A DNA stretch of 64,000 nucleotides from Bacteroides sp. (lineage in GTDB: Bacteria > Bacteroidota > Bacteroidia > Bacteroidales > GCA-2748055). The notes beneath the pieces were generated by a model, which ran no database searches, had not been told where the DNA came from, and worked only from the letters and a program-made list of their open reading frames with translations. A program made the position numbers and the translations under genes. Numbering within the stretch: position 1 is the first letter of the stretch; each line of letters starts with the position of its first letter. Shown here in pieces: positions 12,351-64,000 of the stretch. The DNA is taken from assembly GCA_011056635.1 (NCBI GenBank), contig DSEO01000152.1:330-64329 (forward strand), read 5' to 3'.

Positions 12351-14720
12351 ATGCCGGGCAGTCCCAACAAACTCATCCGGTTCTTCCGGGAAATCGTCCG
12401 CAGGAAAGTGCTGCATTTCCTGATCGTCTACGTGACAGCCTGTTTTGCCATCATTGAATTCTTTGATATCACATCAGGAAGGTTCACCATCCCGGAAAAA
12501 ACTTTTGACCTTCTCTACATCCTTGCGGCCGCCGGCATACCGGTTGTGATCATCCTTCCCTGGTACATTTACAGGAAACAGAAAGATACCAGTGAGATTG
12601 AACCGGCTCCAGCATTGAAATCCCCTCCGGGGAAAGAAAAGATTCTTCTCCATAATCTCCCGGTACAGCTGACCAGTTTCATTGGCCGGGAACAGGAAAT
12701 GGAGACGATCAGGGAGCTTATCAGTGAACACCGGCTGGTGACTCTTACCGGTGCAGGCGGATGCGGAAAAACACGGCTGGCCTGCGAGGTGGCTGCCCAA
12801 CTGGTTCCTGGTTTTAAAGAGGGTGTCTGGTTTGTTGACCTGGCTCCCATATCGGATGGTAACCTGGTCGGGAAAGAGATTTTGGAGGTACTGGGTATCC
12901 CGGAAGTACCCAATCAGCCAATCATTAAAACCCTGGTGGACCAGATCAGGGATCATCAGATGCTGATCATCCTGGATAACTGTGAACACCTTGTCCGGCC
13001 CAGTGCAGAGACAACCACGAAACTGCTGCAATCCGTTCCGGGACTCAGGATGCTTGTCACAAGCCGCGAGGCTCTGAATAACAAGGGAGAGCATGTATGG
13101 AGGATTCCTTCCCTGACTTTGATTGACCCGGAAAAAGTGGTGGGTGTGGAAAGTGCGAGGGACTCGGAAGCAGTGCTGCTTTTTACAGACCGGGCCCGGA
13201 TGAAAAATCCGAATTTCAAACTTGAGAAAGAAAACGTTACTGACATCGTATCCATCTGCAATAAACTGGATGGCATTCCACTTGCCGTGGAACTTGTGGC
13301 CAGCCGGACCATGCATATGGATCCCGGTATGATCCTGGAAAGGTTTGCTGACCGTTTCGACCGTTTGTCCTCACACGATCCGGAAATCTCAACACGTCAG
13401 AAGACCTTGCAGGCGACCATCGAATGGAGTTACAACCTGCTTTCTGACCATGAAAAAATATTATTTGCCAGGCTGGCTGTTTTTAACGGAGGTTTCGGAC
13501 TGAAAGCAGCCGAAAAAGTCTGCTCCGATGAGCGGCTGCCGGAAGAAACCGTCCTGGATACACTGTCCAGGCTTGTGGACAGGTCACTTGTATTTACTTT
13601 CGAAGCAGCTGATCATTCCATGCGGTACAACATGCTGGAGACGATCCGGCAATTTGCCCTGAATTCCTTACAATCTAACAAGGAGGACGAGCAGACAAGG
13701 AAATCGCATTTGCTATATTTTCTGGGCATCGCAGAAGAAGCATATGATCAACAATTTGATAAGCAACTGATGTGGGCGAAAAAGCTAAATGCGGAACATG
13801 ATAATATCCTGGCTGCCCTGAACTGGGCAGAAATTCACTCACCGGAAAAATTTGTAAAATTATCGGGCACCCTTTACTGGTTCTGGCGGCATAACGCACA
13901 CCTTATTGTGGGAAAGGAATATCTGGAAAAGGCCCGTTCAAAAGGGACCGACGGATCGGAAGATGATGCCCGGGTGGTGCTGGGTCTGGGAATGCTCAAC
14001 TGGGTTTCAGGTAATGGTGCAACGGCCATTAGACTGATGGAAGAAAGTCTGGTTATCTGGCGCAGATTAAATAACCTGAAGGAAGAAGCGGTGGCGCTCA
14101 GTGAAATCAGTGAACCATTGCTACATAGCGGGGATATTAAAACCAGCCTGAAATACAGCGAAAGGGGTCTGGAGATCGCGAGGAAACTTGGAGATCCGGG
14201 CCTGATCAATCACTGCCTGATATACCTGTGTACCATGTTCGTCCATACCAAGCAGTATGAGCAGGGCCAGCCCCTGGTGGAAGAGTTGCTGGATTCTTCA
14301 GAAAAACTGCAGAACTTATATGGAATAGAAAGCGCAATACATTTACTGGGCGATTGTACCCTTGGACTGAACAATTACAGGGAAGCGGAGAAAAGATATG
14401 CACTTGGTATTCAGACGGGATTGAAGTACGGTAATATGATCTATACGGTTTTCGATCTCCAGGGTGTGGCTTTTGCACTTTCCGGCCAGTCAAGATGGGC
14501 AAAATCCATCCGGCTGGATACTGCAGCCCGTGAAAAAATGAAAATGATCGGAATGACAGTGGACGGGATGGTGGGATTCTGGGATGAGTGGATCGCCAGG
14601 TATATCGAAGGGGCCAAAAAGGAGGTGGGTGAGGAACTCACCCGGAAATACCAGGAAGAAGGCATCGCCATGGGATTTGAGAAGGCGGTGGAATACGCAC
14701 TGGATTTTGAGAAGGATTAA
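12351..14720 (+). CDS. membrane-anchored STAND (NB-ARC/COG3903-type) NTPase with C-terminal TPR-like repeats
   Basis: Two N-terminal TM helices. NLPVQLTSFIGREQE, Walker A GAGGCGKT, Walker B LIILDNCEH and a GIPLAVEL (GxPLA) motif. Helical repeat C-terminus. Confidence 0.8.
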   Translation: MPGSPNKLIRFFREIVRRKVLHFLIVYVTACFAIIEFFDITSGRFTIPEKTFDLLYILAAAGIPVVIILPWYIYRKQKDTSEIEPAPALKSPPGKEKILLHNLPVQLTSFIGREQEMETIRELISEHRLVTLTGAGGCGKTRLACEVAAQLVPGFKEGVWFVDLAPISDGNLVGKEILEVLGIPEVPNQPIIKTLVDQIRDHQMLIILDNCEHLVRPSAETTTKLLQSVPGLRMLVTSREALNNKGEHVWRIPSLTLIDPEKVVGVESARDSEAVLLFTDRARMKNPNFKLEKENVTDIVSICNKLDGIPLAVELVASRTMHMDPGMILERFADRFDRLSSHDPEISTRQKTLQATIEWSYNLLSDHEKILFARLAVFNGGFGLKAAEKVCSDERLPEETVLDTLSRLVDRSLVFTFEAADHSMRYNMLETIRQFALNSLQSNKEDEQTRKSHLLYFLGIAEEAYDQQFDKQLMWAKKLNAEHDNILAALNWAEIHSPEKFVKLSGTLYWFWRHNAHLIVGKEYLEKARSKGTDGSEDDARVVLGLGMLNWVSGNGATAIRLMEESLVIWRRLNNLKEEAVALSEISEPLLHSGDIKTSLKYSERGLEIARKLGDPGLINHCLIYLCTMFVHTKQYEQGQPLVEELLDSSEKLQNLYGIESAIHLLGDCTLGLNNYREAEKRYALGIQTGLKYGNMIYTVFDLQGVAFALSGQSRWAKSIRLDTAAREKMKMIGMTVDGMVGFWDEWIARYIEGAKKEVGEELTRKYQEEGIAMGFEKAVEYALDFEKD

Positions 14721-52373: not shown

Positions 52374-53045
52374 TCAGGATGATTCCTGCATATGCTCTTC
52401 TGCGGTGACCACCTGGTAGGATTTATCCACGATCAGGTCGGCTTTGGGCTTGAGCGAGGTAACCGCCTGGTGCTCTTTTTCCAGGATGGTCAGCCTGAAA
52501 TCACTCATGGCTTCTTTCAGCCTGATGATCTGGTTGATCTTTGTTTCGTGGTAGGTGAGGTCAATGAACACGCGGAGGTCCAGATCGGGGGCATTGATGG
52601 CATACAACCCGTCAATGATCAGCAGGTCGATCTTGCTGAAATCGGTAAGCAGCTTATCCACCTGCTCGGGGATCAGGTCGATGCACGGGATCATGCATTC
52701 CTGTTCCTCCTTGAAATCCCGGATGGTTTTCCGGATCTTGATCCAGTCATACTCTTCGATGCCGATCTTGTCAAATCCTTTGTTCCTCCTCCATTCCTCC
52801 CTTAGCAGGGGTTGTATCTTATAATAATTATCCGTATGGATAACCTTCACCCGAATATGCTGATCCTTCAAAAGTTTCCCCAGGGCATGTGCCAGTTCGG
52901 ATTTCCCTGAACCCGATTCCCCCGATATCCCCACAATATAACGGTACCGTTCTTCCTTGGTTTTGAGATCCTTTTCGAGATAGGAGTAAATGGTCTGGGC
53001 CGCCTCCTTGTGCATATCATTGATCAGGAGAATATCACCGAGCAT
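52374..53045 (-). CDS. uridine kinase / phosphoribulokinase-family P-loop kinase
   Basis: VGISGESGSGKSELA P-loop, IHTDNYYK and LIIDGLYA. The start overlaps the upstream GH65 gene by 11 nt. Confidence 0.65.
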   Translation of the reverse strand: MLGDILLINDMHKEAAQTIYSYLEKDLKTKEERYRYIVGISGESGSGKSELAHALGKLLKDQHIRVKVIHTDNYYKIQPLLREEWRRNKGFDKIGIEEYDWIKIRKTIRDFKEEQECMIPCIDLIPEQVDKLLTDFSKIDLLIIDGLYAINAPDLDLRVFIDLTYHETKINQIIRLKEAMSDFRLTILEKEHQAVTSLKPKADLIVDKSYQVVTAEEHMQESS

Positions 53046-56000
53046 GGAACATGTTTTTTACGTTTAACATATGTGAAACAGGTTCATCCTGTGTCACTTC
53101 GAAATCAGTTCCGCAAAGATGTACTTTTATTTTTTCCTTTCCTGAGCTTTTGACGGAAATTTTTATCTCCCTTTGGGATATCCGGACATGATAACCGACC
53201 CCTTTGAATAAAAAATTGAATTTCAGACTCTTCCAGTGACCGGGAAGGGACGGCACCAGGGCTGGTTTGTCTCCCCGCAGGTCCATTCCCCCGAAAACAG
53301 CCATCACATCATATACCGTGCCTGCCATAACACCGCAGTGGATCCCTTCCCCCGTCGTACCCCCCTGGATATCCACCAGGTCGCTTCTCAATGCATCCAT
53401 AAACAGTCCCCAGCCGGTTTCCCGCAGACCCATTTCATTGGCGAGCCTGGCATGCACCAGCCTGCTGAGGGTGGAGCCGTGTGAGGTGCGCCGGATGTAA
53501 TAATCATAATTGATCCTGGCGTAATTCTCCGGCAGTGAATATCCCATTTCCCGGATGATCCTCGTTAACTCAGCCTCGCCAAGGTTGTAAAAACACATCA
53601 GGAAATCTGCCTGTTTGGACAGCTTGTAATCATCCGGTGATTTTCCTTCTGCCTTGAGGATGCGGTCCAGCCTGTGAATATCCCCGTAGGCTTGCCTGTA
53701 ATGATCCCAGTCCAGTTCCTCCAGGTCAAAATATCCCCTGAATTGTTCCACCACCCCTTCATCCGAAATGTGCAATGCCAGGTTGTGACGGATCCTGTTC
53801 CACCGGTCCAGGTCCGCTTCTTTCAGTGAAAGGCGGTCAAGGATGGGATCAGACTTACCCGGGGTCAACTCCTCCAGGAGTGCAATTGCCCGGTCCAGGA
53901 TCCAGCTCACCATGATGTTGGTGTAGGCATTGTCCGTCAGGCCTCCCTCTGAAGAATCCGGCAGCTTTTCATGGAACTCATCCGGTCCCATTACTTTATG
54001 AATGTGATACTTCCCGTCAGTTTCATCCGGGACGGACTTGCTCGCCCAGAATTTGCATATATCCAGAAGGAGCTCGGCCCCGAAGGCTTCCATGAACTCC
54101 AGATCGTCCGTGGCTTGATAATATTTGCACAGGTTAAAGGCAATGGCCAGGGAAATGTGGCGCTGAAGAGAGCTGTAATCGTCTCCCCACTCGCCCGACA
54201 GGGGGTTCAGGTGGATCACCTGGGTCTCCTCCCGTCCGTCGCTCCCGCTCTGCCACGGGAACATGGCCCCCTCGTACCCGTGCTCCTTTGCGTAGGCCCT
54301 TGCTGCATCCAGTCTGCGGTAACGGTACATCAGCACCGACCGGGTGACCTCCGGGAAATGAATGTTATAGAGCGGCAACATGTAAAGCTCATCCCAGAAA
54401 ATATGTCCGCGGTATGCCTCCCCGTGCAATCCCCTGGGCGGTATCCCGGAATCCAGTCCCGCATGGTGGGGCGAAGCGGTAACCATCATGTGGAATAGAT
54501 GTAACCGCACCAGACGCTGTGCCTCCCGGTCGCCTCCGATCTCCACATCGATCCTGTCCCAGATCTCCCTCCAGCTCCGTTCAGAACTTTTCATTTCACC
54601 GTCATAGTCCGTCATGCTTTCCACGGTAGCCGAGGCTCGTGCCAGGGGATCTTCCACGCCCGGATCCCTGGAGGTGTAAATGGAGATCAGCTTTTCAAGC
54701 ACGATCCCGCAGTTTTTGCTTCCCTGCAATTCAAAGATGTGTCCGACAAGGCCCCTTCCTGTATGCCCGGTCTGTTTGACGAGGTGATGTTCGTTGTGGA
54801 ATATCCGGTTCCTCGCACACGTGGCGATCATGATATTTGACCGGGTTGTCTTCACAAGCAGTTTCACTCGGTCCTCCGACACTTCCTCCGAAACCGGAGC
54901 GAGGTGTTCCTGGTTGAGATCGTCATAACGTTCCACACCTGCATTCCGGTGATCTCCCCTTATCTCTGACCTGATCTCGATCTTTCCCTCATAATTACAC
55001 GGTGTGACGGTATAACGGATGGCCGCTTTGTGCGGGTCTGACATGCTGGCAAACCGTGAAGAGCTGATCTTTGTTATCCTGCCCCTGTTATCTTCAACCA
55101 CCATCTCCCTGGCCAGCACCCCCTGATGGAAGTGCAGGGTCCGCGTGATGCTTTTGATTCTGAAGGGCGATGCTGCGTCTGTGTCCAACCAGGGGCCGTC
55201 CTCCACCCGGAAGGTGACCGGCAGCCAGTTGGTTGCGTTCACAAAATCCTCATTCTCGATGTCCCTGTCCGCCACCCTGGAAACCAGCCTGTTATAAAGG
55301 CCTGTAATGTACGTGCCCGGGTAATTGACCTTCCCGGCCCGGCTTTCCTCCGGAGCCCCCCTCGTGCCGAAATAACCGTTCCCCACCGCGAGCAATGCTT
55401 CCCTGGACCGTTCCCCGGCAGGCTGGTAATCGTAATACCGGAGCCGCCACCCATCTTCATGAATTCCCTTTTCAAACCAGTTGTTGATCTCTTCCAGGCT
55501 GATCTCTCCCAGGTCTTCCACCACGATATCACCCCCGCCAACCAGTAACTCCCTGATATTATCTTCCCTGGCCACGCCCAGTACCAGTCCGAAATTTCCC
55601 TTCTTCCCGGCCTGTACACCGGAGACTGCATCCTCCACCACAACCGACCGGTGGTATTCCACACCAAGCCTGTCACAGGCGGTGGTGAAGATATCGGGTT
55701 CAGGTTTCCCCTTCAGACCGATCTCTGCAGATACGACGCCGTCCACACGGGTCTCGAACAGATATTCAAGCCCTGCCTTTTCCAGAACCGGCCTGCAATT
55801 CATGCTGGAAGAAGCCACACCGATCCGGACGCCTGCTGCTTTCAAAGCGCGGATCAGGGATACGGAGGTCTCGTATACCTCCACCCCACTTTCCTCCAGC
55901 ACCTGGTTGAACATCATGTTTTTCCTGTTCCCCAGCCCGCATATGGTTTCCTCTGCGGGATCATCTTCCGGTGCTCCCTCCGGGATCTCAATTCCCCTTG

Positions 56001-56226
56001 ATTCCAGGAAAGAGGCAACTCCTTTGTACCTGGGTTTCCCATCCACATAGGGAAGGTAATCACCCGAATGGGTGAATTCCCGAAATGGCTCCGCAAACCT
56101 TTCCTCCCTTGATTTCAGATAGTCATCAAACATCTTTTTCCATGCGGCGGCATGGACCAGGGCAGTCCTGGTAATCACTCCGTCCAGGTCAAAAATAACC
56201 GCATCGAATTTGGGTTGAAAAGCCAT
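53035..56226 (-). CDS. beta-phosphoglucomutase (HAD) :: glycoside hydrolase family 65 phosphorylase fusion
   Basis: N-terminal AVIFDLDGVITRT with VVEDAVSGVQAG (beta-PGM/HAD). The C-terminal ~800 aa carry GH65-like motifs (GHIFWDELYMLP, MFPWQSGSDGREETQ, VMGPDEFHE). Confidence 0.85.
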   Translation of the reverse strand: MAFQPKFDAVIFDLDGVITRTALVHAAAWKKMFDDYLKSREERFAEPFREFTHSGDYLPYVDGKPRYKGVASFLESRGIEIPEGAPEDDPAEETICGLGNRKNMMFNQVLEESGVEVYETSVSLIRALKAAGVRIGVASSSMNCRPVLEKAGLEYLFETRVDGVVSAEIGLKGKPEPDIFTTACDRLGVEYHRSVVVEDAVSGVQAGKKGNFGLVLGVAREDNIRELLVGGGDIVVEDLGEISLEEINNWFEKGIHEDGWRLRYYDYQPAGERSREALLAVGNGYFGTRGAPEESRAGKVNYPGTYITGLYNRLVSRVADRDIENEDFVNATNWLPVTFRVEDGPWLDTDAASPFRIKSITRTLHFHQGVLAREMVVEDNRGRITKISSSRFASMSDPHKAAIRYTVTPCNYEGKIEIRSEIRGDHRNAGVERYDDLNQEHLAPVSEEVSEDRVKLLVKTTRSNIMIATCARNRIFHNEHHLVKQTGHTGRGLVGHIFELQGSKNCGIVLEKLISIYTSRDPGVEDPLARASATVESMTDYDGEMKSSERSWREIWDRIDVEIGGDREAQRLVRLHLFHMMVTASPHHAGLDSGIPPRGLHGEAYRGHIFWDELYMLPLYNIHFPEVTRSVLMYRYRRLDAARAYAKEHGYEGAMFPWQSGSDGREETQVIHLNPLSGEWGDDYSSLQRHISLAIAFNLCKYYQATDDLEFMEAFGAELLLDICKFWASKSVPDETDGKYHIHKVMGPDEFHEKLPDSSEGGLTDNAYTNIMVSWILDRAIALLEELTPGKSDPILDRLSLKEADLDRWNRIRHNLALHISDEGVVEQFRGYFDLEELDWDHYRQAYGDIHRLDRILKAEGKSPDDYKLSKQADFLMCFYNLGEAELTRIIREMGYSLPENYARINYDYYIRRTSHGSTLSRLVHARLANEMGLRETGWGLFMDALRSDLVDIQGGTTGEGIHCGVMAGTVYDVMAVFGGMDLRGDKPALVPSLPGHWKSLKFNFLFKGVGYHVRISQREIKISVKSSGKEKIKVHLCGTDFEVTQDEPVSHMLNVKNMFHAR

Positions 56227-56311: not shown

Positions 56312-58528
56312 ATGAAAAGGCTCATTTTAGCGTCCAATCTGCTTCCGGTACATATCACTCCGCGGGATGGAGAATATGTTATTGAAAAATCAGACGAACA
56401 GACCATTTCGGGTTTGCAAAATTTCTATGAAACTAACTTTCCGAGGTGGGTGGGAATGACAGGGCTGGAAAACCATGAATTCACCCCCGGGGAAATCGAA
56501 CTGCTGGAGAGCAAACTGGACCGGTTCAACTGTGTGCCGCTTTTCCCTGCGGTCCGTGACCATAACCTGTACCTGCATGGATTCGCCCGGAACACCCTGT
56601 GGCCCCTGTTTCATTACTTTACGGAAAATGTGGTGTACAACGAGGATTCCTGGAAAGCCTATGTGAAAATCAACAGGCTCTTTGCGGAAAAGATCCTTCA
56701 GCTGGTTAATGACGGTGATATCCTGTGGATCCATGACTATCACCTGATGCTTGTGCCGCAGATGATCAGGGAGCAGAAACCGGGTATATCCATCGGACTG
56801 TTCATTCATGTGCCCTTTCCTTCCTTCGAATTGTTCAGGCTGCTTCCCTGGTGCCAGGAAGTCATCGAGGGAATGCTCGGAGCCGATCTGATCGGTTTTC
56901 AGACCTATGACCATGTCAGGCATTTTATGAGTTCGGTGAGGCGGCTGACCGGGGTCGATTCCATTTTCAACCGGATCACCATGGGGGAAAGGACCATGAA
57001 GGTGGATGTTTTCCCCAAGGGGATCAATTACGAACGTTTCAGGAAAAAGACCCTCATGCTTCACAGTGACGAAGCCTCTCCTTCCCGGATCAAGGAAGAA
57101 ATGGAAATATTCAAAAGATCCGGAAACCTGGAAAAGCTGATCCTTTCCATCGACAAGCTGGACTATACAAAGGGCATCCCTCAAAGGCTCAGGGCATTTG
57201 AAAGGTTCCTGCAAACCAATCCCGATTACCTGGGAAAAGTGAGCATGATCGTACAGGCCATCCCCTCGGGAGAAACCAGTGAATCCTTCTTCAACCTGAA
57301 GAGCAAGGTGGATGAACTGGTGGGAAGGATCAACGGGAATTACGGGACCATCAACTGGACCCCGGTCAGGTACCTGAACCAGGTATTCACCATGGATGAG
57401 CGCATTGATCTCTATTCCCTGTCGGACATCGCCCTGATCCTGCCACTGCGCGACGGGATGAACCTGGTTGCCAAAGAGTTTGTTGCTTCCCGGCACGATG
57501 GCAGGGGAGTGCTTATTCTGAGCGAACTGGCCGGAGCTTCCAAGGAACTGCATGAAGCCATCCTGGTCAATCCCAACAACCTGGATGCCATAGCGGAGGC
57601 CATTAAGACAGCTATCGAGATGCCAGGGGAAGAGCAGGTACGCCGGAACCGGGTGATGATGCAGCGGCTGGAGCGCTATACGGTGGAACGGTGGGCCCAC
57701 GAATTCGTAAACAGCCTGGAAGGCGTCAAGGAATTGCAGGAGGTTTCACTTACCAGGAAGATCAACATCACACACATGCGGCAGATTGTTGGCGCATACA
57801 TGGAAGCAACAAAACGCATCCTCTTTTTGGATTATGACGGAACCCTCTCCTGGTTTGTCAAGAATCCCGAAGATGCTAAACCGGATAAAGCGCTTTATGC
57901 GATCCTCGAAGATCTGACCCGGGATGAGAAAAATACGGTGGTGATCATCAGCGGAAGGGATAAGGAGACCCTGGGAAGGTGGTTTGATAACGGCTGGAAT
58001 ATTCATTTTATCGCGGAGCACGGAGTCTGGTTGCGTGAACCGGGAGGTGAGTGGCACATGATGGAGCAGATCGATAACGCATGGAAGGAGTCGGTTCAGC
58101 CCCTGCTGGAATATTATGTGGATCAAACACCCAGGAGTTTTATAGAGCATAAGAACTTCTCCCTGGTCTGGCATTACAGAGATGCAGACCCGGACCTGGG
58201 GATGCAAAGGGCCTGGGAACTGAAGGATGAACTCCGGACACTCACCTCCAACCTGCACCTGGAGGTGATGGATGGAGATAAAGTACTGGAGATCAAATAC
58301 GCGGGGATCAACAAGGGAAGGGCAGCGCTGCAGAAGATGGGCACAAACACCTATGATTTCATCTTTGCGGTGGGAGATGACTGGACCGATGAATATACCT
58401 TCGATGCCATGCCGGAGAATGCCTATACCATCAAAGTAGGCGCCAGGACCACGAAAGCATCCTATTATATTGAAAGCGTGGACATGGTCAGGGACCTGCT
58501 GTCGCGCTTTAAGTCCGGACAGGATTGA
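56312..58528 (+). CDS. otsA: bifunctional trehalose-6-phosphate synthase (GT20) / trehalose-6-phosphate phosphatase
   Basis: GT20 motifs (LWIHDYHLML, LILPLRDGMNLVAKEF) followed by HAD motif ILFLDYDGTL and a GDDWTDE phosphatase domain. Confidence 0.9.
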   Translation: MKRLILASNLLPVHITPRDGEYVIEKSDEQTISGLQNFYETNFPRWVGMTGLENHEFTPGEIELLESKLDRFNCVPLFPAVRDHNLYLHGFARNTLWPLFHYFTENVVYNEDSWKAYVKINRLFAEKILQLVNDGDILWIHDYHLMLVPQMIREQKPGISIGLFIHVPFPSFELFRLLPWCQEVIEGMLGADLIGFQTYDHVRHFMSSVRRLTGVDSIFNRITMGERTMKVDVFPKGINYERFRKKTLMLHSDEASPSRIKEEMEIFKRSGNLEKLILSIDKLDYTKGIPQRLRAFERFLQTNPDYLGKVSMIVQAIPSGETSESFFNLKSKVDELVGRINGNYGTINWTPVRYLNQVFTMDERIDLYSLSDIALILPLRDGMNLVAKEFVASRHDGRGVLILSELAGASKELHEAILVNPNNLDAIAEAIKTAIEMPGEEQVRRNRVMMQRLERYTVERWAHEFVNSLEGVKELQEVSLTRKINITHMRQIVGAYMEATKRILFLDYDGTLSWFVKNPEDAKPDKALYAILEDLTRDEKNTVVIISGRDKETLGRWFDNGWNIHFIAEHGVWLREPGGEWHMMEQIDNAWKESVQPLLEYYVDQTPRSFIEHKNFSLVWHYRDADPDLGMQRAWELKDELRTLTSNLHLEVMDGDKVLEIKYAGINKGRAALQKMGTNTYDFIFAVGDDWTDEYTFDAMPENAYTIKVGARTTKASYYIESVDMVRDLLSRFKSGQD

Positions 58529-58739: not shown

Positions 58740-60005
58740 ATGAAATCGCCTCGGTCGTTGTCATTGACCTCGTCGGTGTACGAGGAAAATGAGACAGAGC
58801 CCCCGGACCTTCTTCCCTCCGGAGCCATTCCCCAGCACAATCACAGAAAAAACGGAGATGTCCTTACTCCTCCCCACAGCGAGAGATCATCGCGGTTCAG
58901 GGAGCAGTATTATCCGGATATTCCCGTGAGTAAATGGAACAGCTGGCAATGGCAGTTAACAAACAGCATCACAACCTGGGAACAGCTGGGAAGATTTTTC
59001 AGCCTGTCCGGCCAGGAGATTCAGGCGGCGCTTATGAAGCACCGCCTGCCCCTGCGGATCACTCCCTATTATGCGAGCCTGATTGATCCTGAAAACCCGT
59101 TGCAGCCCATACGGCGGACCATGATCCCCGTGGTACAGGAATTGCTTATCACCCCAGAAGAACAGGCCGACCCCCTGGGCGAGGAAAATCAGAGTCCGGT
59201 TCCCCAGCTGGTTCACAGGTATCCTGACCGGGTCCTGTTTCTGACAACCGGTGTATGTGCGGCTTATTGCAGGTACTGCACCCGTTCACATATGGTATCA
59301 AAAAAGGACAAGGTCCACACCAGCCTGAGTGTTTGGGACGCAGCGCTGCATTATATCCGGAGTCACCCGGGGATCCGTGATGTACTCTTATCCGGCGGGG
59401 ATCCGCTGACCATGTCCGACAGCAGGCTGGAATACCTGCTTTCCAGGCTGAGGCTCATCCCCCACGTTGAGATCATCCGGATCGGCACCAAGGTTCCCGT
59501 GGTCCTCCCCCAGCGAATTACTCCCGGACTGACAAAAATGCTCAGAAATTACCATCCGCTGCTGATGAGCATTCATTTCACCCATCCCGATGAGATCACT
59601 CCCGAAGCATCCTTTGCCTGCAACCGGCTGGCCGATGCGGGAATCCCGCTTGGCAGCCAGACTGTGCTGCTGAAAGGGATCAATGATACAGTGGAAACCT
59701 ACAAGAACCTGGCCCAGAAGCTGCTGAAGATCAGGGTAAAACCCTATTACCTCTACCAGTGTGACCCCATTCCGGGGTCCTCCCATTTCAGGACACCGGT
59801 ATCCAGGGGTCTGGATATCATCAGGGGGCTTCGCGGATTCACCTCGGGGTATGCCATCCCCCATTTCGTGATCGATGCCCCGGGAGGAGGAGGAAAGATC
59901 CCGCTGCTGCCCGATTACGTGGCGGAAAGAAATGAAGAGGGTTACCTGCTCACGAACTATGAGGGGAAACAATACCTGTACAAAGAACCCCTGGACCTGT
60001 TCTAA
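58740..60005 (+). CDS. kamA: lysine 2,3-aminomutase (KamA/AblA type)
   Basis: Near-collinear with clostridial LAM as I remember it: ITPYYASLID, HRYPDRVLFLTTGVCAAYCRYC, VLLSGGDP, PYYLYQCD and FVIDAPGGGGK. Both lysine-binding Asp positions and the PLP lysine are present. Confidence 0.9.
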   Translation: MKSPRSLSLTSSVYEENETEPPDLLPSGAIPQHNHRKNGDVLTPPHSERSSRFREQYYPDIPVSKWNSWQWQLTNSITTWEQLGRFFSLSGQEIQAALMKHRLPLRITPYYASLIDPENPLQPIRRTMIPVVQELLITPEEQADPLGEENQSPVPQLVHRYPDRVLFLTTGVCAAYCRYCTRSHMVSKKDKVHTSLSVWDAALHYIRSHPGIRDVLLSGGDPLTMSDSRLEYLLSRLRLIPHVEIIRIGTKVPVVLPQRITPGLTKMLRNYHPLLMSIHFTHPDEITPEASFACNRLADAGIPLGSQTVLLKGINDTVETYKNLAQKLLKIRVKPYYLYQCDPIPGSSHFRTPVSRGLDIIRGLRGFTSGYAIPHFVIDAPGGGGKIPLLPDYVAERNEEGYLLTNYEGKQYLYKEPLDLF

Positions 60006-60017
60006 CAGATAGGAAGG

Positions 60018-61763
60018 ATGATCATCATCAGGCGCATCCAGGATGCCACGCTACCCTCTGACAGGAGTGCCATCGAGCAGGTCCAGGAGATCCTCAGGAG
60101 CCGGTTCCCCGATGTGAGGGAAAAATACATCGAAAACATACCCGAACAGCTTACTGATCCCCTCAAATACAGGTTTCGCACCTCCCTGCTGGTTTCCGAA
60201 AACAGGAACGGCACCGTCCGGGGTTTCTCCCTGATGTACCACGCGCCTGACCTACACTTCAGTTACCTCGATTTCATCGCCACCCGGAAGGAGGTAAAAT
60301 CGGGGGGGATCGGAAGCTCGCTGTATGAGAGCGCCAGGGAAGAGGCCCTGAAGCTCAAATCGGTCGGCCTCTTTTTTGAATGTCTGTCCGATGACCCATC
60401 CGTCTGTCGCAATGCAGCGCTGATCGAGGAAAACAAAGCCAGACTGAAGTTCTATGAGCGCTTCGGTGCATTCCCGCTGATCAATACCAGGTATGAGACT
60501 CCTGTGAATCCTGACAAAGATGCGTGTCCGCCATACCTCGTGTGTGATTTCCTGGGACAGCCGCCTGTGGGTAAAAAGACCGCCAGGAAGATCGTGAGGG
60601 CGATCCTGCAGCGGAAATATGAGGACATTGTGACGGCGGATTATATGGATGATGTGGTCCGGTCCATCCAGGATGACCCTGTGAAACTCAGGGAACCCAG
60701 GTATACAAAACCGAGGAAATCACCCGGAACCGGGGCAGCCGCTCAACCCGGCCCGGACCTGATCCGTCTGACCATCAACGACCGCCATTCCATCCACCAT
60801 GTCCGCGACAGGGGTTATGTGGAATCCCCGGTCAGGATTTCCACCATCGCAGCAGAACTGAATGCCTCCGGCCTCTTCAGGGAATTGTCCGTCCGAACAT
60901 TTTCGGAAAAACATATCCAGGCGGTACATGACGCGAAATACATCCAGTATTTCAAGAGGGTGTGCGCTGACTTGCCAGCCGGAAAATCCATCTACCCCTA
61001 TGTGTTCCCCGTCAGAAACAGCGACAGGGCCCCGTCGGACGATTCTGTGCTGGCCGGTTATTACTGCATCGATACCTTCACCCCGCTGAACAGCAATGCA
61101 TACCTGGCTGCCAGAAGAGCTGTGGATTGTGCAATGACCGGCGCCGAATATCTCCTGGGAGGGGGCCGTGCGGTATATGCCCTGGTCCGCCCCCCCGGTC
61201 ACCATGCCGAAAGGAAAGTCTTCGGAGGATTCTGCTACTTCAACTCGGCAGCCATTGCCGCTCATTACCTGTCCCATTACGGAAGGGTTGCCATGCTGGA
61301 CGTGGATTACCACCACGGCAACGGCCAGCAGGATATATTTTACCATCGAAAGGATGTGCTGACCATATCCATTCACGGGCATCCCTCCTTTGCCTATCCC
61401 TATTTCAGCGGTTACTCCGAAGAAAAAGGAGAGGGTGAAGGCCTGGGGTTCAATGTGAACTATCCCATGAAGGAACAGCTTACCGGTGAACTTTACAGGA
61501 CGGTACTTGGCCGGGCCATGGAGCGGATCCGAAGGTTCAAACCGGATTTCCTGGTGGTGCCCCTGGGTCTGGATACATCCAGGGGAGATCCAACGGGCAC
61601 CTGGAGCCTGACCGCGTCGGATTTCAGCCTGAATGGACAGATCATCGGGAAATACAGGTTCCCGACACTGTTTGTACAGGAAGGCGGTTATAAGAACAGG
61701 GTGCTGGGCGTGAATGCCAGGAAATTTTTCCAGGGCTTTCACACGGTATTTTTCAATCAATAA
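60018..61763 (+). CDS. GNAT-like acyltransferase :: histone-deacetylase/acetylpolyamine-amidohydrolase-family fusion
   Basis: Residues ~1-230 have GNAT-like features (KSGGIGSSLYE, ARLKFYERFGA). Residues ~250-575 carry the HDAC-family motifs RPPGHHA, LDVDYHHGNG, GLDTSRGDP and QEGGY. Confidence 0.85.
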   Translation: MIIIRRIQDATLPSDRSAIEQVQEILRSRFPDVREKYIENIPEQLTDPLKYRFRTSLLVSENRNGTVRGFSLMYHAPDLHFSYLDFIATRKEVKSGGIGSSLYESAREEALKLKSVGLFFECLSDDPSVCRNAALIEENKARLKFYERFGAFPLINTRYETPVNPDKDACPPYLVCDFLGQPPVGKKTARKIVRAILQRKYEDIVTADYMDDVVRSIQDDPVKLREPRYTKPRKSPGTGAAAQPGPDLIRLTINDRHSIHHVRDRGYVESPVRISTIAAELNASGLFRELSVRTFSEKHIQAVHDAKYIQYFKRVCADLPAGKSIYPYVFPVRNSDRAPSDDSVLAGYYCIDTFTPLNSNAYLAARRAVDCAMTGAEYLLGGGRAVYALVRPPGHHAERKVFGGFCYFNSAAIAAHYLSHYGRVAMLDVDYHHGNGQQDIFYHRKDVLTISIHGHPSFAYPYFSGYSEEKGEGEGLGFNVNYPMKEQLTGELYRTVLGRAMERIRRFKPDFLVVPLGLDTSRGDPTGTWSLTASDFSLNGQIIGKYRFPTLFVQEGGYKNRVLGVNARKFFQGFHTVFFNQ

Positions 61764-61783: not shown

Positions 61784-62830
61784 ATGAAACAGCGGAGAAA
61801 TAAACAGTCGACTACCATCGGGCTCACCTATGACCTGAGGGACGAGTACCTGGCCATGGGCTTTACGGAAGAGGAGACGGCCGAATTTGACCGGGAAGGG
61901 ACCATCGTGGCCATTGAAACCACCCTGGAGAGCCTGGGTTACCGGACCGACCGGATCGGTCACATCTGGAACCTGGTGCGCCGCCTGGAGCGGGGCGACC
62001 GCTGGGATATGGTATTCAATATTGCAGAGGGACTCTACGGTGCGGGAAGGGAAGCCCAGGTGCCCGCACTGCTGGACGCCTACCGGATCCCCTATGTGTT
62101 TTCCGGTCCCCTGATCCTGGCGCTTACCCTGGACAAGGCGATGACCAAGGTGATCGTGAAAGATGCCGGGATCGCCACCCCGGAGCACCGGGTGGTGTAC
62201 CATCCCCGGGACATTGCGAAAATCGATCTCCCCTGCCCGCTCTTTGTAAAACCACTGGCCGAGGGAACCGGCAAGGGGATCGATCCCCGGTCGGTCATCC
62301 GTGACCAGGAACAGTTATATGAAGTTTGCAGGCTTCTTCTTTCCAGATACAACCAGCCCGTGCTGGTGGAGACCTACCTGGGCGGAAGGGAGTTCACCGC
62401 GGGGATCGTGGGGACAGGCGACCGGGCCAGGTGCGTGGGGGTGATCGAGATCATCCTGAAGGACAATGCGGAAGAGGGAGTATATTCCTATGTGAACAAG
62501 GAGGAGTGTGAGGAGCGGATCATCTACAGCCTGACGGATCCGGCGGCAGTTGAAGTGTGTGCGGATATGGCCCTGAAAGTCTGGAAGACCCTGCGGTGTG
62601 AGGATGCCGGAAGGGTGGATATCCGCTTTGACGAAGACGGAAAGGCATATTTCCTGGAAGTCAATCCCCTGGCGGGACTGCACCCCGAGCACTCGGACCT
62701 TCCCATTCTGGCCAAACTTCACGGTACCGGCTACAGGGAGCTGATGAAAATGATCATGGATTCGGCAGTCCTGAAACTCAAACAAACCGTGCATGAAACA
62801 GGTACTCCTGTTGATCAATACGCTCACTGA
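61784..62830 (+). CDS. D-alanine--D-alanine ligase-family ATP-grasp protein
   Basis: ATP-grasp layout: LDKAMTKVIVKDAGIATP, LFVKPLAEGTGKGI, VLVETYLGGREF, GRVDIRFDEDGKAYFLEVNPLAGL. Confidence 0.85.
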   Translation: MKQRRNKQSTTIGLTYDLRDEYLAMGFTEEETAEFDREGTIVAIETTLESLGYRTDRIGHIWNLVRRLERGDRWDMVFNIAEGLYGAGREAQVPALLDAYRIPYVFSGPLILALTLDKAMTKVIVKDAGIATPEHRVVYHPRDIAKIDLPCPLFVKPLAEGTGKGIDPRSVIRDQEQLYEVCRLLLSRYNQPVLVETYLGGREFTAGIVGTGDRARCVGVIEIILKDNAEEGVYSYVNKEECEERIIYSLTDPAAVEVCADMALKVWKTLRCEDAGRVDIRFDEDGKAYFLEVNPLAGLHPEHSDLPILAKLHGTGYRELMKMIMDSAVLKLKQTVHETGTPVDQYAH

Positions 62831-63770
62831 CAAGCCTTCCGGGGACGAACTGGATGTACTTGTCCAGGCCGAAGCGGTTGAAAAGGCGCTTGAAAATCTA
62901 GGACACAGCCATTCCAGGGCTTACTGCGGACTGAACCTGGAATACATCCGGGTCCTCCTGGAAACCAGGTCCCCCGACCTGGTCTTCAACCTGGTGGAGA
63001 GCATGGCAGGCAAGGGCTCCCTGATCCATCTGCCCGCCTGGCTGCTGGAAACCTGCGGAATCCCGTTCACCGGCTCACCCGCCTATGCCCTGATGATCAC
63101 AACAGACAAAGTGCGCACCAAATCCATCCTCCGGCAACAGGGGATCCCCACGCCGGACTGGATCCTGCCCGGGAATTGGGATAAGCGGCCCGAAACCGGA
63201 ATAAAATATATCCTGAAACCCATCTGGGAAGACGGTTCCGCCGGGATCACCGATGCATCGGTGGTGGAGGGCGGGACATTCGATTTTGAAGGATTTTCGG
63301 GGGACCATAAGTTCAGGGATTATTTCCTGGAGGAATACATTGACGGCAGGGAATTCAATATCACGCTGCTGGCGGGGCGCGGCGGACCGGAAGTGATGCC
63401 GGTGGCAGAGATGCGGTATGTGGATTATCCGGAGGACAAGCCCCGGATCCTCAATTTCGCCTCCAAATGGGACGAAGGCTCTTTTGAATATGCAAAGACC
63501 ATCCGGAGCTTTGATCTGCCGGAAAAGGACAGTGAACTTTTGTCCCGTTTGAAGGAGATCAGTCTGGAGTGCTGGGGGGTGTTTGAAATGAAGGGTTACG
63601 CCAGGGTGGATTTCCGGGTGGACAGGAATCAGAATCCCTTCGTGCTGGAGGTGAACGCCAATCCGTGTATCTCGCCGGATGCGGGATTTGTGGCCGCGTG
63701 TGCGCATGGAGGAGTGGACTACGATTCCATGATCGGGCGGATCATTACGGATACAATGCTACAAGCATGA
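62793..63770 (+). CDS. second Ddl-like ATP-grasp protein
   Basis: TDKVRTKSILRQQGIPTP, ILKPIWEDGSAGI, LEEYIDGREF and ARVDFRVDRNQNPFVLEVNANPC. The ATG start overlaps the upstream gene by 38 nt. Confidence 0.8.
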   Translation: MKQVLLLINTLTDKPSGDELDVLVQAEAVEKALENLGHSHSRAYCGLNLEYIRVLLETRSPDLVFNLVESMAGKGSLIHLPAWLLETCGIPFTGSPAYALMITTDKVRTKSILRQQGIPTPDWILPGNWDKRPETGIKYILKPIWEDGSAGITDASVVEGGTFDFEGFSGDHKFRDYFLEEYIDGREFNITLLAGRGGPEVMPVAEMRYVDYPEDKPRILNFASKWDEGSFEYAKTIRSFDLPEKDSELLSRLKEISLECWGVFEMKGYARVDFRVDRNQNPFVLEVNANPCISPDAGFVAACAHGGVDYDSMIGRIITDTMLQA

Positions 63771-64000
63771 ATACGGAAAAACACGGGAAGCAGGCAGGCG
63801 TCATCGGGCTCAGGAGTGAGGTACGGACAGGCGACCCGGCCATTGTGGAAGAGATTGTCCGCTCCACCGGTTTCTTCCGGGAAGACGAGGTGACAGTTGC
63901 CGTGGAACTGGTCCGGGAACGCCTGGATAAAGGAGCCGAAAGCGGGTATGAGTTTATCTTCGCCCAGGCAGGCAGCCAAACCGTGGGATACAGCTGCTTC
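63767..64000 (+). CDS. GNAT-family N-acetyltransferase, 3' end cut by window
   Basis: My own translation: MNTEKHGKQAGVIGLRSEVRTGDPAIVEEIVRSTGFFREDEVTVAVELVRERLDKGAESGYEFIFAQAGSQTVGYSCF. ATGA overlap with the upstream stop. The frame is open to the window end. It looks like a GNAT N-terminal half. Confidence 0.6.
   Translation, partial: MNTEKHGKQAGVIGLRSEVRTGDPAIVEEIVRSTGFFREDEVTVAVELVRERLDKGAESGYEFIFAQAGSQTVGYSCF

Follow-up and report, generated by a model that had tools for sequence, protein, structure and literature searches.

The open reading frame at positions 60018..61763 (+) of the 64,000-nucleotide stretch of DNA analysed here (the window) raises the question of why an acetyltransferase-like and a deacetylase domain, formally opposing activities, should occur in a single polypeptide, and on what they might act. 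The reading frame is uninterrupted, begins with ATG and encodes 581 amino acids (ORF listing of the window). It can be divided into an N-terminal GNAT domain (residues 1–231; 60018..60710, +; AF2 model, Foldseek, PF00583, hhalign), a Pro/Gly/Ala-rich linker (residues 232–247; 60711..60758, +; low pLDDT, variable in orthologues), and an ApaH-type Zn deacetylase of the classical HDAC family (residues 248–581 plus the stop codon; 60759..61763, +; PF00850, PDB, Foldseek). The linker proposed in the initial annotation coincides with residues 232–244 of the AlphaFold model, the sole long inter-domain stretch of low confidence (pLDDT <50), and both its sequence and its length differ between orthologues.

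The GNAT-deacetylase fusion is genuine and widespread. It is encoded in no fewer than 569 species-representative genomes spread over more than 10 phyla, and the same protein, 100% identical, turns up on ENA and JGI contigs that were assembled independently. Among the matches listed, more than 120 full-length relatives of ~580 residues share 57–100% identity with the query, and the orthologues span 97–100% of its length. GC3 is alike in the GNAT and deacetylase halves of the reading frame. These observations rule out misassembly or a frameshift, raised at the outset as a possible origin, and we put the chance that two separate genes were joined artefactually at practically nil. The carriers include small-genome Dehalococcoidales, Desulfobacterota, Bacteroidales, KSB1, Calditrichota, Acidobacteriota and Planctomycetota, and the cultured carriers found are Ancylomarina sp. 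and Desulfuromonas sp. AOP6, both of which we take to be marine. Identity between phyla is 55–60%, which implies an important function under strong constraint. The catalytic and motif residues of both domains are invariant in 78 orthologues, with the exception of D85 (77 of 78; see below). NCBIfam naming gave no informative match for the fusion, for its N-terminal domain, or for the small GNAT (sGNAT) encoded downstream.

In the AF2 model of the N-terminal domain alone (pLDDT 84.5, pTM 0.83), the first 231 residues are a GNAT fold, with the topology β1-α1-α2-β2-β3-β4-α3-β5-α4-β6-β7 in the exact canonical order. Foldseek comparison with the PDB gave 278 matches at E ≤ 0.001; the best 50 of the 278 are GNAT-fold acetyltransferases, the closest being GCN5/PCAF (E = 2.5e-8, TM 0.76). 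The Pfam match to PF00583 is marginal (21.7 bits against a cut-off of 20.7), and relatives of the fusion reach 26–34 bits. The domain also aligns with the family of the operon's sGNAT (hhalign, 95% probability, E = 2.4e-8), and this homology suggests related acceptors. A motif script placed the KSGGIGSSLYE segment of the initial annotation at residues 94–104 and ARLKFYERFGAFP at residues 141–153. The former contains the predicted CoA-pyrophosphate loop between β4 and α3 (consensus Q/R-x-x-G-x-G/A; here K94-S-G-G97-I-G99, the first position being variable). G97, G99, E121 and Y146 are invariant in 78 of 78 orthologues, and D85 is retained in 77, with E in the remaining one. D85 (β4), E121 (β5) and Y146 (α4) are candidate catalytic residues. 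The suspicion of a GNAT-like N-terminus thus held, both in the predicted fold and in the retained G-x-G of the CoA-pyrophosphate loop across the 78 orthologues.

The C-terminal domain is predicted to be a catalytically competent ApaH-type zinc deacetylase. Residues 268–571 match Hist_deacetyl (PF00850) at E = 1.2e-73 (Pfam), PDB entries 9gkz, 6phr, 3men and 3q9b match the domain at E = 1e-60 to 1e-69, and the modelled domain matches 6phr and 3q9b at E ~1e-24 with a TM of 0.81–0.88 on the target (Foldseek). In the PDB search the deacetylase half was nearest to ApaH, not to AcuC. RPPGHHA (residues 391–397, with H395/H396), LDVDYHHGNG (427–436, with D430 and H432), GLDTSRGDP (517–525, with D519) and QEGGY (554–558, with Y558) were located by the motif script exactly where they had been described. 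H395/H396, D430/H432/D519 and Y558 align with H158/H159, D195/H197/D284 and Y323 of Mycoplana ramosa ApaH, the Asp-His-Asp set being the Zn ligands of the family. The numbering of H158/H159 and Y323 is that of PMC11532494. The aligned residues of the fusion, together with RPPGHH (391–396) and EGGY (555–558), are invariant in the 78 orthologues, and the RPPGHH and xGGY/EGGY motifs have been tied to acetyl-specific ApaH enzymes of cluster 4 that act on small cationic amines (PMC11532494). The PF00850 match and the alignment to solved ApaH structures bear out the earlier description of a complete HDAC/ApaH domain with its catalytic residues intact.

The fusion shares its C-terminal fold with the cluster-4 ApaH enzymes of M. 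ramosa (3Q9B), Marinobacter (6PHR) and Pseudomonas (9GKZ) at 34–38% identity. Common to them are the RPPGHH and EGGY motifs, the catalytic Tyr, the His-His dyad and the Zn site of Asp, His and Asp (PMC11532494). A highly conserved segment of the fusion (residues ~323–356), modelled at pLDDT <50, aligns with a gap of at most one residue to L2, the polyamine-specificity loop that mediates the head-to-head dimer of ApaH, and may be its counterpart. The fusion differs from ApaH in that the GNAT domain sits just upstream of the segment that aligns with the ApaH N-terminal (L1) part, in that an invariant PTG (525–527) replaces the PIS motif, and in the residues that contact polyamine: E106, E117 and Y168 of M. 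ramosa ApaH (MrApaH) are replaced by S343, F354 (invariant) and F, respectively. PsApaH likewise lacks E106 and E117, so these residues are not universal in ApaH. The genomic setting differs as well, the fusion lying among β-lysine and ATP-grasp genes and not among genes of polyamine catabolism.

In the window the gene order is KamA, fusion, AG1, AG2, sGNAT. The KamA-family radical-SAM lysine 2,3-aminomutase (58740..60005, +; 421 residues; TIGR00238, PDB 2A5H) scores 353 bits against TIGR00238 (cut-off 199), 456 bits against the AblA model TIGR03820, short of its cut-off of 525, and E = 2e-129 against 2A5H. It carries the CxxxCxxC motif at residues 173–180. Its D342 and D379, present in 67 of 69 module KamAs, correspond to D293 and D330 of LAM, and K386 corresponds to the LAM PLP lysine; D342, D379 and K386 are kept in 67–69 of the 69. 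In the Clostridium LAM, D293 and D330 bind the lysine ε-ammonium group. The window's KamA is predicted from these residues to be lysine-type and the source of β-lysine.

AG1 (61784..62830, +) is a distant ATP-grasp ligase of the D-Ala-D-Ala-ligase (Ddl) family (PF07478, E = 5e-25), falling under every NCBIfam Ddl cut-off and matching its best PDB Ddl at E = 9e-24. AG2 (62793..63770, +; start placed at 62811 by public gene calls) is a second ATP-grasp ligase (PF07478, E = 8e-15; best PDB Ddl match, E = 1e-15). Alignments of AG1 and AG2 with Ddl were uninformative about ligase substrates, the identity being too low. The sGNAT is represented by its 5' part (63767..64000, +; sequence reading), the gene being cut at the window end, and its ATG overlaps the AG2 stop codon (ATGA). 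The complete protein has 176 residues and is encoded on an identical contig (L004, 13750–14280). Its best NCBIfam match is RimI-like (34.5 bits, under the cut-off), 120 relatives are named in their sources only 'GNAT family' or 'RimI-like', and across all NCBIfam (E ≤ 1) neither the sGNAT nor the fusion N-terminal domain matched a β-lysine acetyltransferase family. Promoter and terminator scans of 56–64 kb of the window gave counts no higher than in shuffled sequence. The operon is preceded by an OtsA/OtsB trehalose gene, and a GH65+HAD gene is also adjacent. A functional tie to these trehalose genes was rejected; the arrangement is confined to one lineage (L004–L006 and L087) and occurs at no other locus, and it hints at osmoadaptation weakly at best.

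Proximity to KamA and/or ATP-grasp genes, which the initial annotation had suggested checking, proved real at 47 of 59 assessable fusion loci (80%) and not universal: 12 of the 59 are solitary, with no KamA or ligase gene within 5–8 kb. In one Bacteroidota clade (L021, L066, L067, L084) the fusion is solitary throughout. The amine on which the enzyme acts may thus be one that is generally available. Only the two ATP-grasps, KamA and sGNAT recur as neighbours of the fusion, and the ligases are its most conserved partners. AG1 co-occurs with KamA, and AG2 is conserved after AG1. All-against-all clustering of flanking ORFs of at least 70–80 residues revealed no further conserved partner, be it a transporter, carrier protein, peptidase or precursor. 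Around 17 fusion loci without nearby KamA or ligase genes, the neighbours belong to 109 Pfam families that share no theme, MscS leading with 3 of 66 neighbours. The KamA/ligase core occurs without the fusion at 24 of 36 ligase-seeded loci, where no HDAC-domain match to the fusion C-terminal domain was present in flanks of up to 8 kb, which indicates that the fusion is accessory to the core and not an obligatory step. In those genomes the fusion could sit elsewhere.

Natural fusions join the same genes to one another. KamA is fused to AG1 (L111, 6678–9038), AG2 is fused to sGNAT (L137, 9048–10616), an ATP-grasp is fused to the N-terminal GNAT, and in further cases the GNAT-HDAC protein carries sGNAT at its C-terminus (P0128, P0150, L102). 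Such fusions of KamA with ligase, of ligase with GNAT, and of GNAT-HDAC with GNAT place all five genes in one pathway.

We consider the chances even that the fusion is an accessory, bifunctional acetyl-editing enzyme of a β-lysine pathway, with both of its domains predicted to be competent. KamA would convert L-lysine to β-lysine, the two Ddl-like ATP-grasp ligases would make amide bonds involving β-lysine, and sGNAT, the homologue of the fusion N-terminal domain, would N-acetylate the pathway product. The deacetylase half of the fusion would take an acetyl group off an aminoalkyl (ε-amine-like) position of this β-lysine-derived small molecule, and the GNAT half would use acetyl-CoA to acetylate the same or a second amine, with the outcome that the charge, pool size or turnover of the compound is controlled. 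The edited metabolite would probably resemble a compatible solute or a polyamine. That the fusion usually adjoins genes for β-lysine synthesis and amide linkage suggests an acetylated metabolite of β-lysine that has yet to be described; what we infer in this explanation are the substrates, the direction in which flux runs physiologically, and the kind of compound finally made. Against acetyl editing count the 12 of 59 loci lacking KamA or ligase genes nearby, the fact that the N-terminal domain has protein-lysine acetyltransferases as its structural neighbours, and the altered polyamine-contact residues of the ApaH-type domain. Opposing activities on one substrate would also produce a futile cycle unless regulated, and no regulatory element for the two activities was identified. 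A bolder form of the proposal, which we advance only tentatively, is that the core makes an undescribed β-lysine-containing oligoamide, a compatible solute or polyamine surrogate widespread among anaerobes of more than 10 phyla, and that the fusion is a small-molecule writer-eraser reversibly toggling its acetylation and thereby its net charge. If true, this would be a single-polypeptide acetylation switch on a metabolite, not on a protein.

None of the three functions suggested in the initial annotation is singled out by these results, which speak neither for nor against a GNAT fold used for non-acetyl chemistry. The simple version of its switch between synthesis and degradation of N-acetyl-β-lysine leaves the two ATP-grasp ligases unexplained. 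As an osmolyte switch, the GNAT half or sGNAT would acetylate β-lysine to Nε-acetyl-β-lysine and the ApaH half would hydrolyse the product for its removal. The KamA is lysine-type, and in AblA/AblB of methanogens and YodP-KamA of Bacillus, the systems for Nε-acetyl-β-lysine synthesis, a lysine 2,3-aminomutase likewise adjoins a GNAT (PMC9049628); in the module, too, β-lysine is predicted to be made and N-acetylated. An adjacent KamA/GNAT pair has been named ablA/ablB in a Desulfuromonadales genome paper (PMC3543383). The preceding trehalose gene in the window, the three MscS channels among the 66 neighbours of solitary copies, and the marine habitat of the cultured carriers fit osmoadaptation too. 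We nevertheless hold the osmolyte switch to be unlikely: it gives no account of the ligases, which no other partner exceeds in conservation and which some genomes have fused to KamA or to GNATs, neither GNAT bears an NCBIfam β-lysine acetyltransferase name (E ≤ 1), the KamA falls short of the AblA equivalog cut-off, the trehalose linkage is limited to the window's lineage, and AblA/AblB has no counterpart to the two core ATP-grasp ligases or to an HDAC-family deacetylase covalently joined to one GNAT. The protecting-group suggestion, in which a transient acetyl on one amine of β-lysine would permit regiospecific ligation before obligatory removal by the ApaH half, would make sense of a pair of ligases for a diamino acid being surrounded by two acetyltransferases and a single deacetylase, in tightly linked genes whose reading frames overlap. 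It has precedents: arginine biosynthesis proceeds through N-acetyl-protected intermediates, and in the kamA operon of B. subtilis an acetyltransferase gene (for yodP-kamA, see PMC9049628) is accompanied by one for a putative deacetylase. An obligatory deacetylase should accompany the core, and its absence from flanks of up to 8 kb at 24 of 36 ligase-seeded loci weakens this version, making it quite unlikely in our view.

Writer and eraser might instead share a protein substrate, as with AcuA/AcuC acting on acetyl-CoA synthetase, and so switch pathway enzymes or other proteins. AcuA/AcuC of B. subtilis and GCN5/HDAC pairs resemble the fusion in combining a GNAT with a classical HDAC-family enzyme of opposite activity, the GCN5/PCAF histone acetyltransferases are the best Foldseek matches of the N-terminal domain, solitary copies of the fusion occur, and PsApaH of cluster 4 deacetylates peptides in which Lys or Arg precedes the acetylated residue as well as acetylated AcsA (PMC11532494). 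Foldseek rank among GNATs at ~15% identity is a weak guide to acceptor type, however, and ApaH-type enzymes form dimers in which steric restriction of the sites suits them to small amines (PMC11532494). The fusion is moreover a single polypeptide with an ApaH-type, not an AcuC/class I, deacetylase; no gene for an acyl-CoA synthetase of the AMP-forming type, or for any other recurrent protein target, lies nearby; the context is small-molecule biosynthesis; and a metabolic enzyme is the better match for 55–60% identity across phyla and for covalent fusion with enzymes of biosynthesis. Protein acetylation is decidedly unlikely as the main role. General polyamine homeostasis, with SpeG-like acetylation of putrescine, cadaverine or spermidine paired with deacetylation by the ApaH half and no more than a loose tie of the gene to the β-lysine genes, draws on the acetylpolyamine amidohydrolases as nearest solved structures, on the twelve solitary loci, and on the many acidic residues among the invariant positions of both domains. 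It is very improbable, as the 80% linkage and the Rosetta-stone fusions bind the gene to the β-lysine module, the polyamine-contact residues are not kept, and polyamine biosynthesis or transport genes are not recurrent nearby.

The module also resembles another kind of system. N-acetylglutaminylglutamine amide (Ngg) and N-acetylaspartylglutamate (NAT8L/RIMKLA) are N-acetylated dipeptides made by a GNAT and an ATP-grasp enzyme. The module similarly combines an acetyltransferase with an ATP-grasp amide ligase, and ATP-grasp+GNAT fusions are seen in it. It differs in that its ligases are Ddl-like and not RimK-like, its β-lysine would come from a radical-SAM mutase, and it has a dedicated deacetylase.

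The GNAT and ApaH domains of the fusion both come from well-studied families. The literature searched, which did not extend to Iyer et al. 2009 (Mol Biosyst; PMC3268129), reportedly a catalogue of ATP-grasp/GNAT neighbourhoods, yielded no paper on a characterised GNAT-HDAC/ApaH fusion enzyme or on the five-gene β-lysine/ATP-grasp module, and a GNAT fusion goes unmentioned in the main text of a bacterial deacylase survey (PMC11532494). Solving the fusion would probably bring to light a new metabolite derived from β-lysine in anaerobic bacteria of sediments and digesters, and would show how an enzyme with opposing activities escapes a futile cycle. With Ancylomarina sp. and Desulfuromonas sp. 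AOP6 in culture, the question is open to direct testing.

The fusion gene at 60018–61763 (+) is a single unbroken ORF with an ATG start encoding 581 aa (ORF listing of the window). A script check on its translation reproduced exactly every motif and residue number of the initial annotation: KSGGIGSSLYE (residues 94–104) and ARLKFYERFGAFP (residues 141–153) in the N-terminal half, followed by RPPGHHA (391–397; H395/H396), LDVDYHHGNG (427–436; D430, H432), GLDTSRGDP (517–525; D519) and QEGGY (554–558; Y558). In the AlphaFold model (mean pLDDT 81.6), the sole long low-confidence stretch between the domains comprises residues 232–247 and matches the proposed linker. Both domains belong to known superfamilies, and public names for the protein are only 'histone deacetylase family protein' or 'AcuC-like/GNAT'.

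The C-terminal domain is a full-length Hist_deacetyl domain (residues 268–571; Pfam E 1.2e-73). The closest solved structures are acetylpolyamine amidohydrolases (ApaH; 9gkz, 6phr, 3men and 3q9b, E 1e-60 to 1e-69), with 34–38% identity to the bacterial ApaH structures, and the same structures are the top Foldseek matches of the AlphaFold model (E about 1e-24). H395/H396, D430/H432/D519 and Y558 align with H158/H159, D195/H197/D284 and Y323 of Mycoplana ramosa ApaH (MrApaH, 3q9b), bearing out the claim of a complete deacetylase domain with its His pair, Asp-His-Asp set and Tyr. The domain also has the RPPGHH and EGGY motifs, tied to acetyl-specific 'cluster 4' polyamine deacetylases in a 2024 survey of bacterial classical deacylases, whose main text does not mention a GNAT fusion (PMC11532494). 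The PIS motif of ApaH is replaced by an invariant PTG in the fusion, and MrApaH E106, E117 and Y168 by S, F and F. Since some substrate-contact positions are changed, the domain is ApaH-like but may act on something other than a classical polyamine.

The Pfam GNAT match of the N-terminal domain is marginal (PF00583, 21.7 bits versus a cut-off of 20.7); relatives exceed the threshold. Residues 1–232, modelled alone with 18 orthologues as input, gave a pLDDT of 84.5, a pTM of 0.83 and the canonical GNAT order of secondary structure. Foldseek returned 278 PDB matches to this model at E ≤ 0.001, the best 50 of which are GNAT-fold acetyltransferases, headed by GCN5/PCAF acetyltransferase domains (E 2.5e-8, TM 0.76 on target). 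By profile-profile comparison (hhalign), the domain is homologous to the small GNAT of the operon (sGNAT; 95% probability, E 2.4e-8), with the G-x-G loop, the β5 acidic residue and the FYE helix all aligned; relative to sGNAT, a conserved stretch, LPDDPxLC..., is inserted between β5 and α4 of the fusion domain (60018–60710). The proposed GNAT identity is thus upheld by the model, the structural matches and this homology. The domain family is small: of 1.84 billion protein clusters, only 448 representatives match at E ≤ 0.001. Among the best 150 of these, the long proteins (~530–600 aa) have the length of the fusion, and most others are short.

How widespread the fusion is had been raised in the initial annotation: when species were each represented by one genome, at least 569 genomes encoded it, with carriers in Bacteroidota, Desulfobacterota, Dehalococcoidales, KSB1, Calditrichota, Acidobacteriota, Planctomycetota, Nitrospirota, Spirochaetota and Gammaproteobacteria. 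Among the matches listed, more than 120 are full-length relatives of ~580 aa (57–100% identity). This distribution, and the presence of the identical protein in ENA and JGI contigs assembled independently, make an artefact joining two genes extremely improbable. G97, G99, E121, Y146, H395, H396, D430, H432, D519 and Y558 are invariant in 78/78 aligned orthologues and D85 is kept in 77, which argues that both predicted activities are retained. Cultured carriers (Ancylomarina sp. and Desulfuromonas sp. AOP6) make the fusion amenable to testing.

The fusion gene is the second of a tightly packed operon: a lysine 2,3-aminomutase family gene (KamA, 58740–60005), the fusion, two ATP-grasp ligases (AG1, 61784–62830; AG2, 62793–63770) and sGNAT, all (+). 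The sGNAT gene starts at 63767, its ATG overlapping the preceding stop codon, and is cut at the window end; the full gene lies at 13750–14280 of the identical contig L004. AG1 and AG2 belong, as distant relatives, to the D-Ala-D-Ala ligase family and score under every curated Ddl cut-off. KamA matches Clostridium lysine 2,3-aminomutase (2A5H) with an E of 2e-129 and scores below the AblA equivalog cut-off. It retains the CxxxCxxC cluster motif, the PLP lysine, D342 and D379, key residues conserved in 67–69 of 69 aligned module KamAs. The two aspartates correspond to those binding the lysine ε-ammonium in the Clostridium enzyme. Because these lysine-type residues are kept, β-lysine is the predicted product. 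Each aspartate position is occupied by Asp in 67/69 KamA-like sequences from the loci; the two exceptions at the first position are Lys and His, and those at the second are Asn and a gap. Lys/Asn is the reported substitution pattern of glutamate 2,3-aminomutase. Weak KamA matches (30–33% identity) occur in loci L041 and L048. The KamA ORF begins ~50 residues upstream of the Clostridium alignment (58740–58900; query residue 54 corresponds to chain residue 5); the extra N-terminal residues may be genuine, or translation may initiate further downstream.

The initial annotation also asked whether KamA or ATP-grasp genes always neighbour the fusion. One or both kinds are present in 47 of 80 genome loci seeded on it, but 12 loci, each flanked by 5 kb or more on either side, hold a solitary fusion; the others were too short for judgement or unscored. 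Solitary copies occur in one Bacteroidota clade and otherwise scattered, with no common theme among their neighbours. Clustering of all flanking ORFs in the fusion-seeded loci gave the two ligases, KamA and sGNAT as the sole recurrent neighbours, and no recurrent transporter, carrier or peptidase. In the reverse direction, 36 AG1-seeded metagenome loci of at least 9 kb (from L087–L166) were counted. The fusion is present in 11; another 24 hold KamA-AG1-AG2 (18 also hold sGNAT), and their available flank, up to 8 kb, contains neither the fusion nor an HDAC-domain match. Hence the core is self-contained and the fusion is accessory to it rather than obligatory; the core itself has the look of a separate and widespread operon. 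Our literature search found no paper describing this core as an operon, nor, in full text outside the ATP-grasp/GNAT neighbourhood catalogue of Iyer et al., 2009, one describing the GNAT-HDAC architecture and five-gene module. Desulfuromonas sp. AOP6 has, besides the fusion, a stand-alone HDAC-family gene (L001 14102–15235, 377 aa) ~430 bases downstream of KamA.

All module components are linked by naturally occurring gene fusions: KamA+AG1 (L111 6678–9038, 786 aa), AG2+sGNAT (L137 9048–10616, 522 aa), ATP-grasp+N-GNAT (P0157, 540 aa) and, in three independent occurrences, GNAT-HDAC-sGNAT (P0128, P0150 and L102 10218–12470; 738–762 aa), all single ORFs or protein predictions from metagenomic data, of which individual ones could be sequencing errors.

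The analysis shows domain identity, intact sites, linkage and these Rosetta-stone fusions. In the best-supported reading, which stands about an even chance of being right, the fusion edits the acetylation state of amines on a β-lysine-derived small molecule. KamA would supply β-lysine, AG1 and AG2 would form one or two amide bonds involving it, and sGNAT would acetylate the ligase product; the ApaH half of the fusion would remove acetyl from an aminoalkyl amide and the GNAT half, as an sGNAT homologue, would add it. We infer the substrates, product and physiological direction of this pathway. Widespread and strongly conserved, the fusion probably marks an undescribed β-lysine metabolite.

A simple switch between N-acetyl-β-lysine synthesis and degradation would fit the AblA/AblB precedent (PMC9049628) and an annotation in a Pelobacter genome (PMC3543383), but is unlikely: it leaves the ATP-grasp ligases without explanation, and neither GNAT of the operon matches a β-lysine acetyltransferase family in NCBIfam. 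The many cores with no fusion nearby weaken an obligatory protect-and-deprotect step, which we consider less likely again. Lower still we place a protein-lysine writer/eraser like AcuA/AcuC; the GCN5-like fold of the N-terminal domain and the dual activity of PsApaH favour it, whereas covalent fusions to biosynthetic enzymes speak against it. General homeostasis of polyamine acetylation is the least probable of these accounts.

Directly upstream of the operon lies an OtsA/OtsB trehalose-6-phosphate synthase/phosphatase fusion (56312–58528, +), preceded by a 1063-aa fusion of a HAD (β-phosphoglucomutase-like) domain and a GH65 phosphorylase (53035–56226, –) and an overlapping PRK/uridine-kinase-like gene (52374–53045, –). 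Among the loci compared, trehalose genes adjoin the operon only in this lineage (L004–L006, L087).
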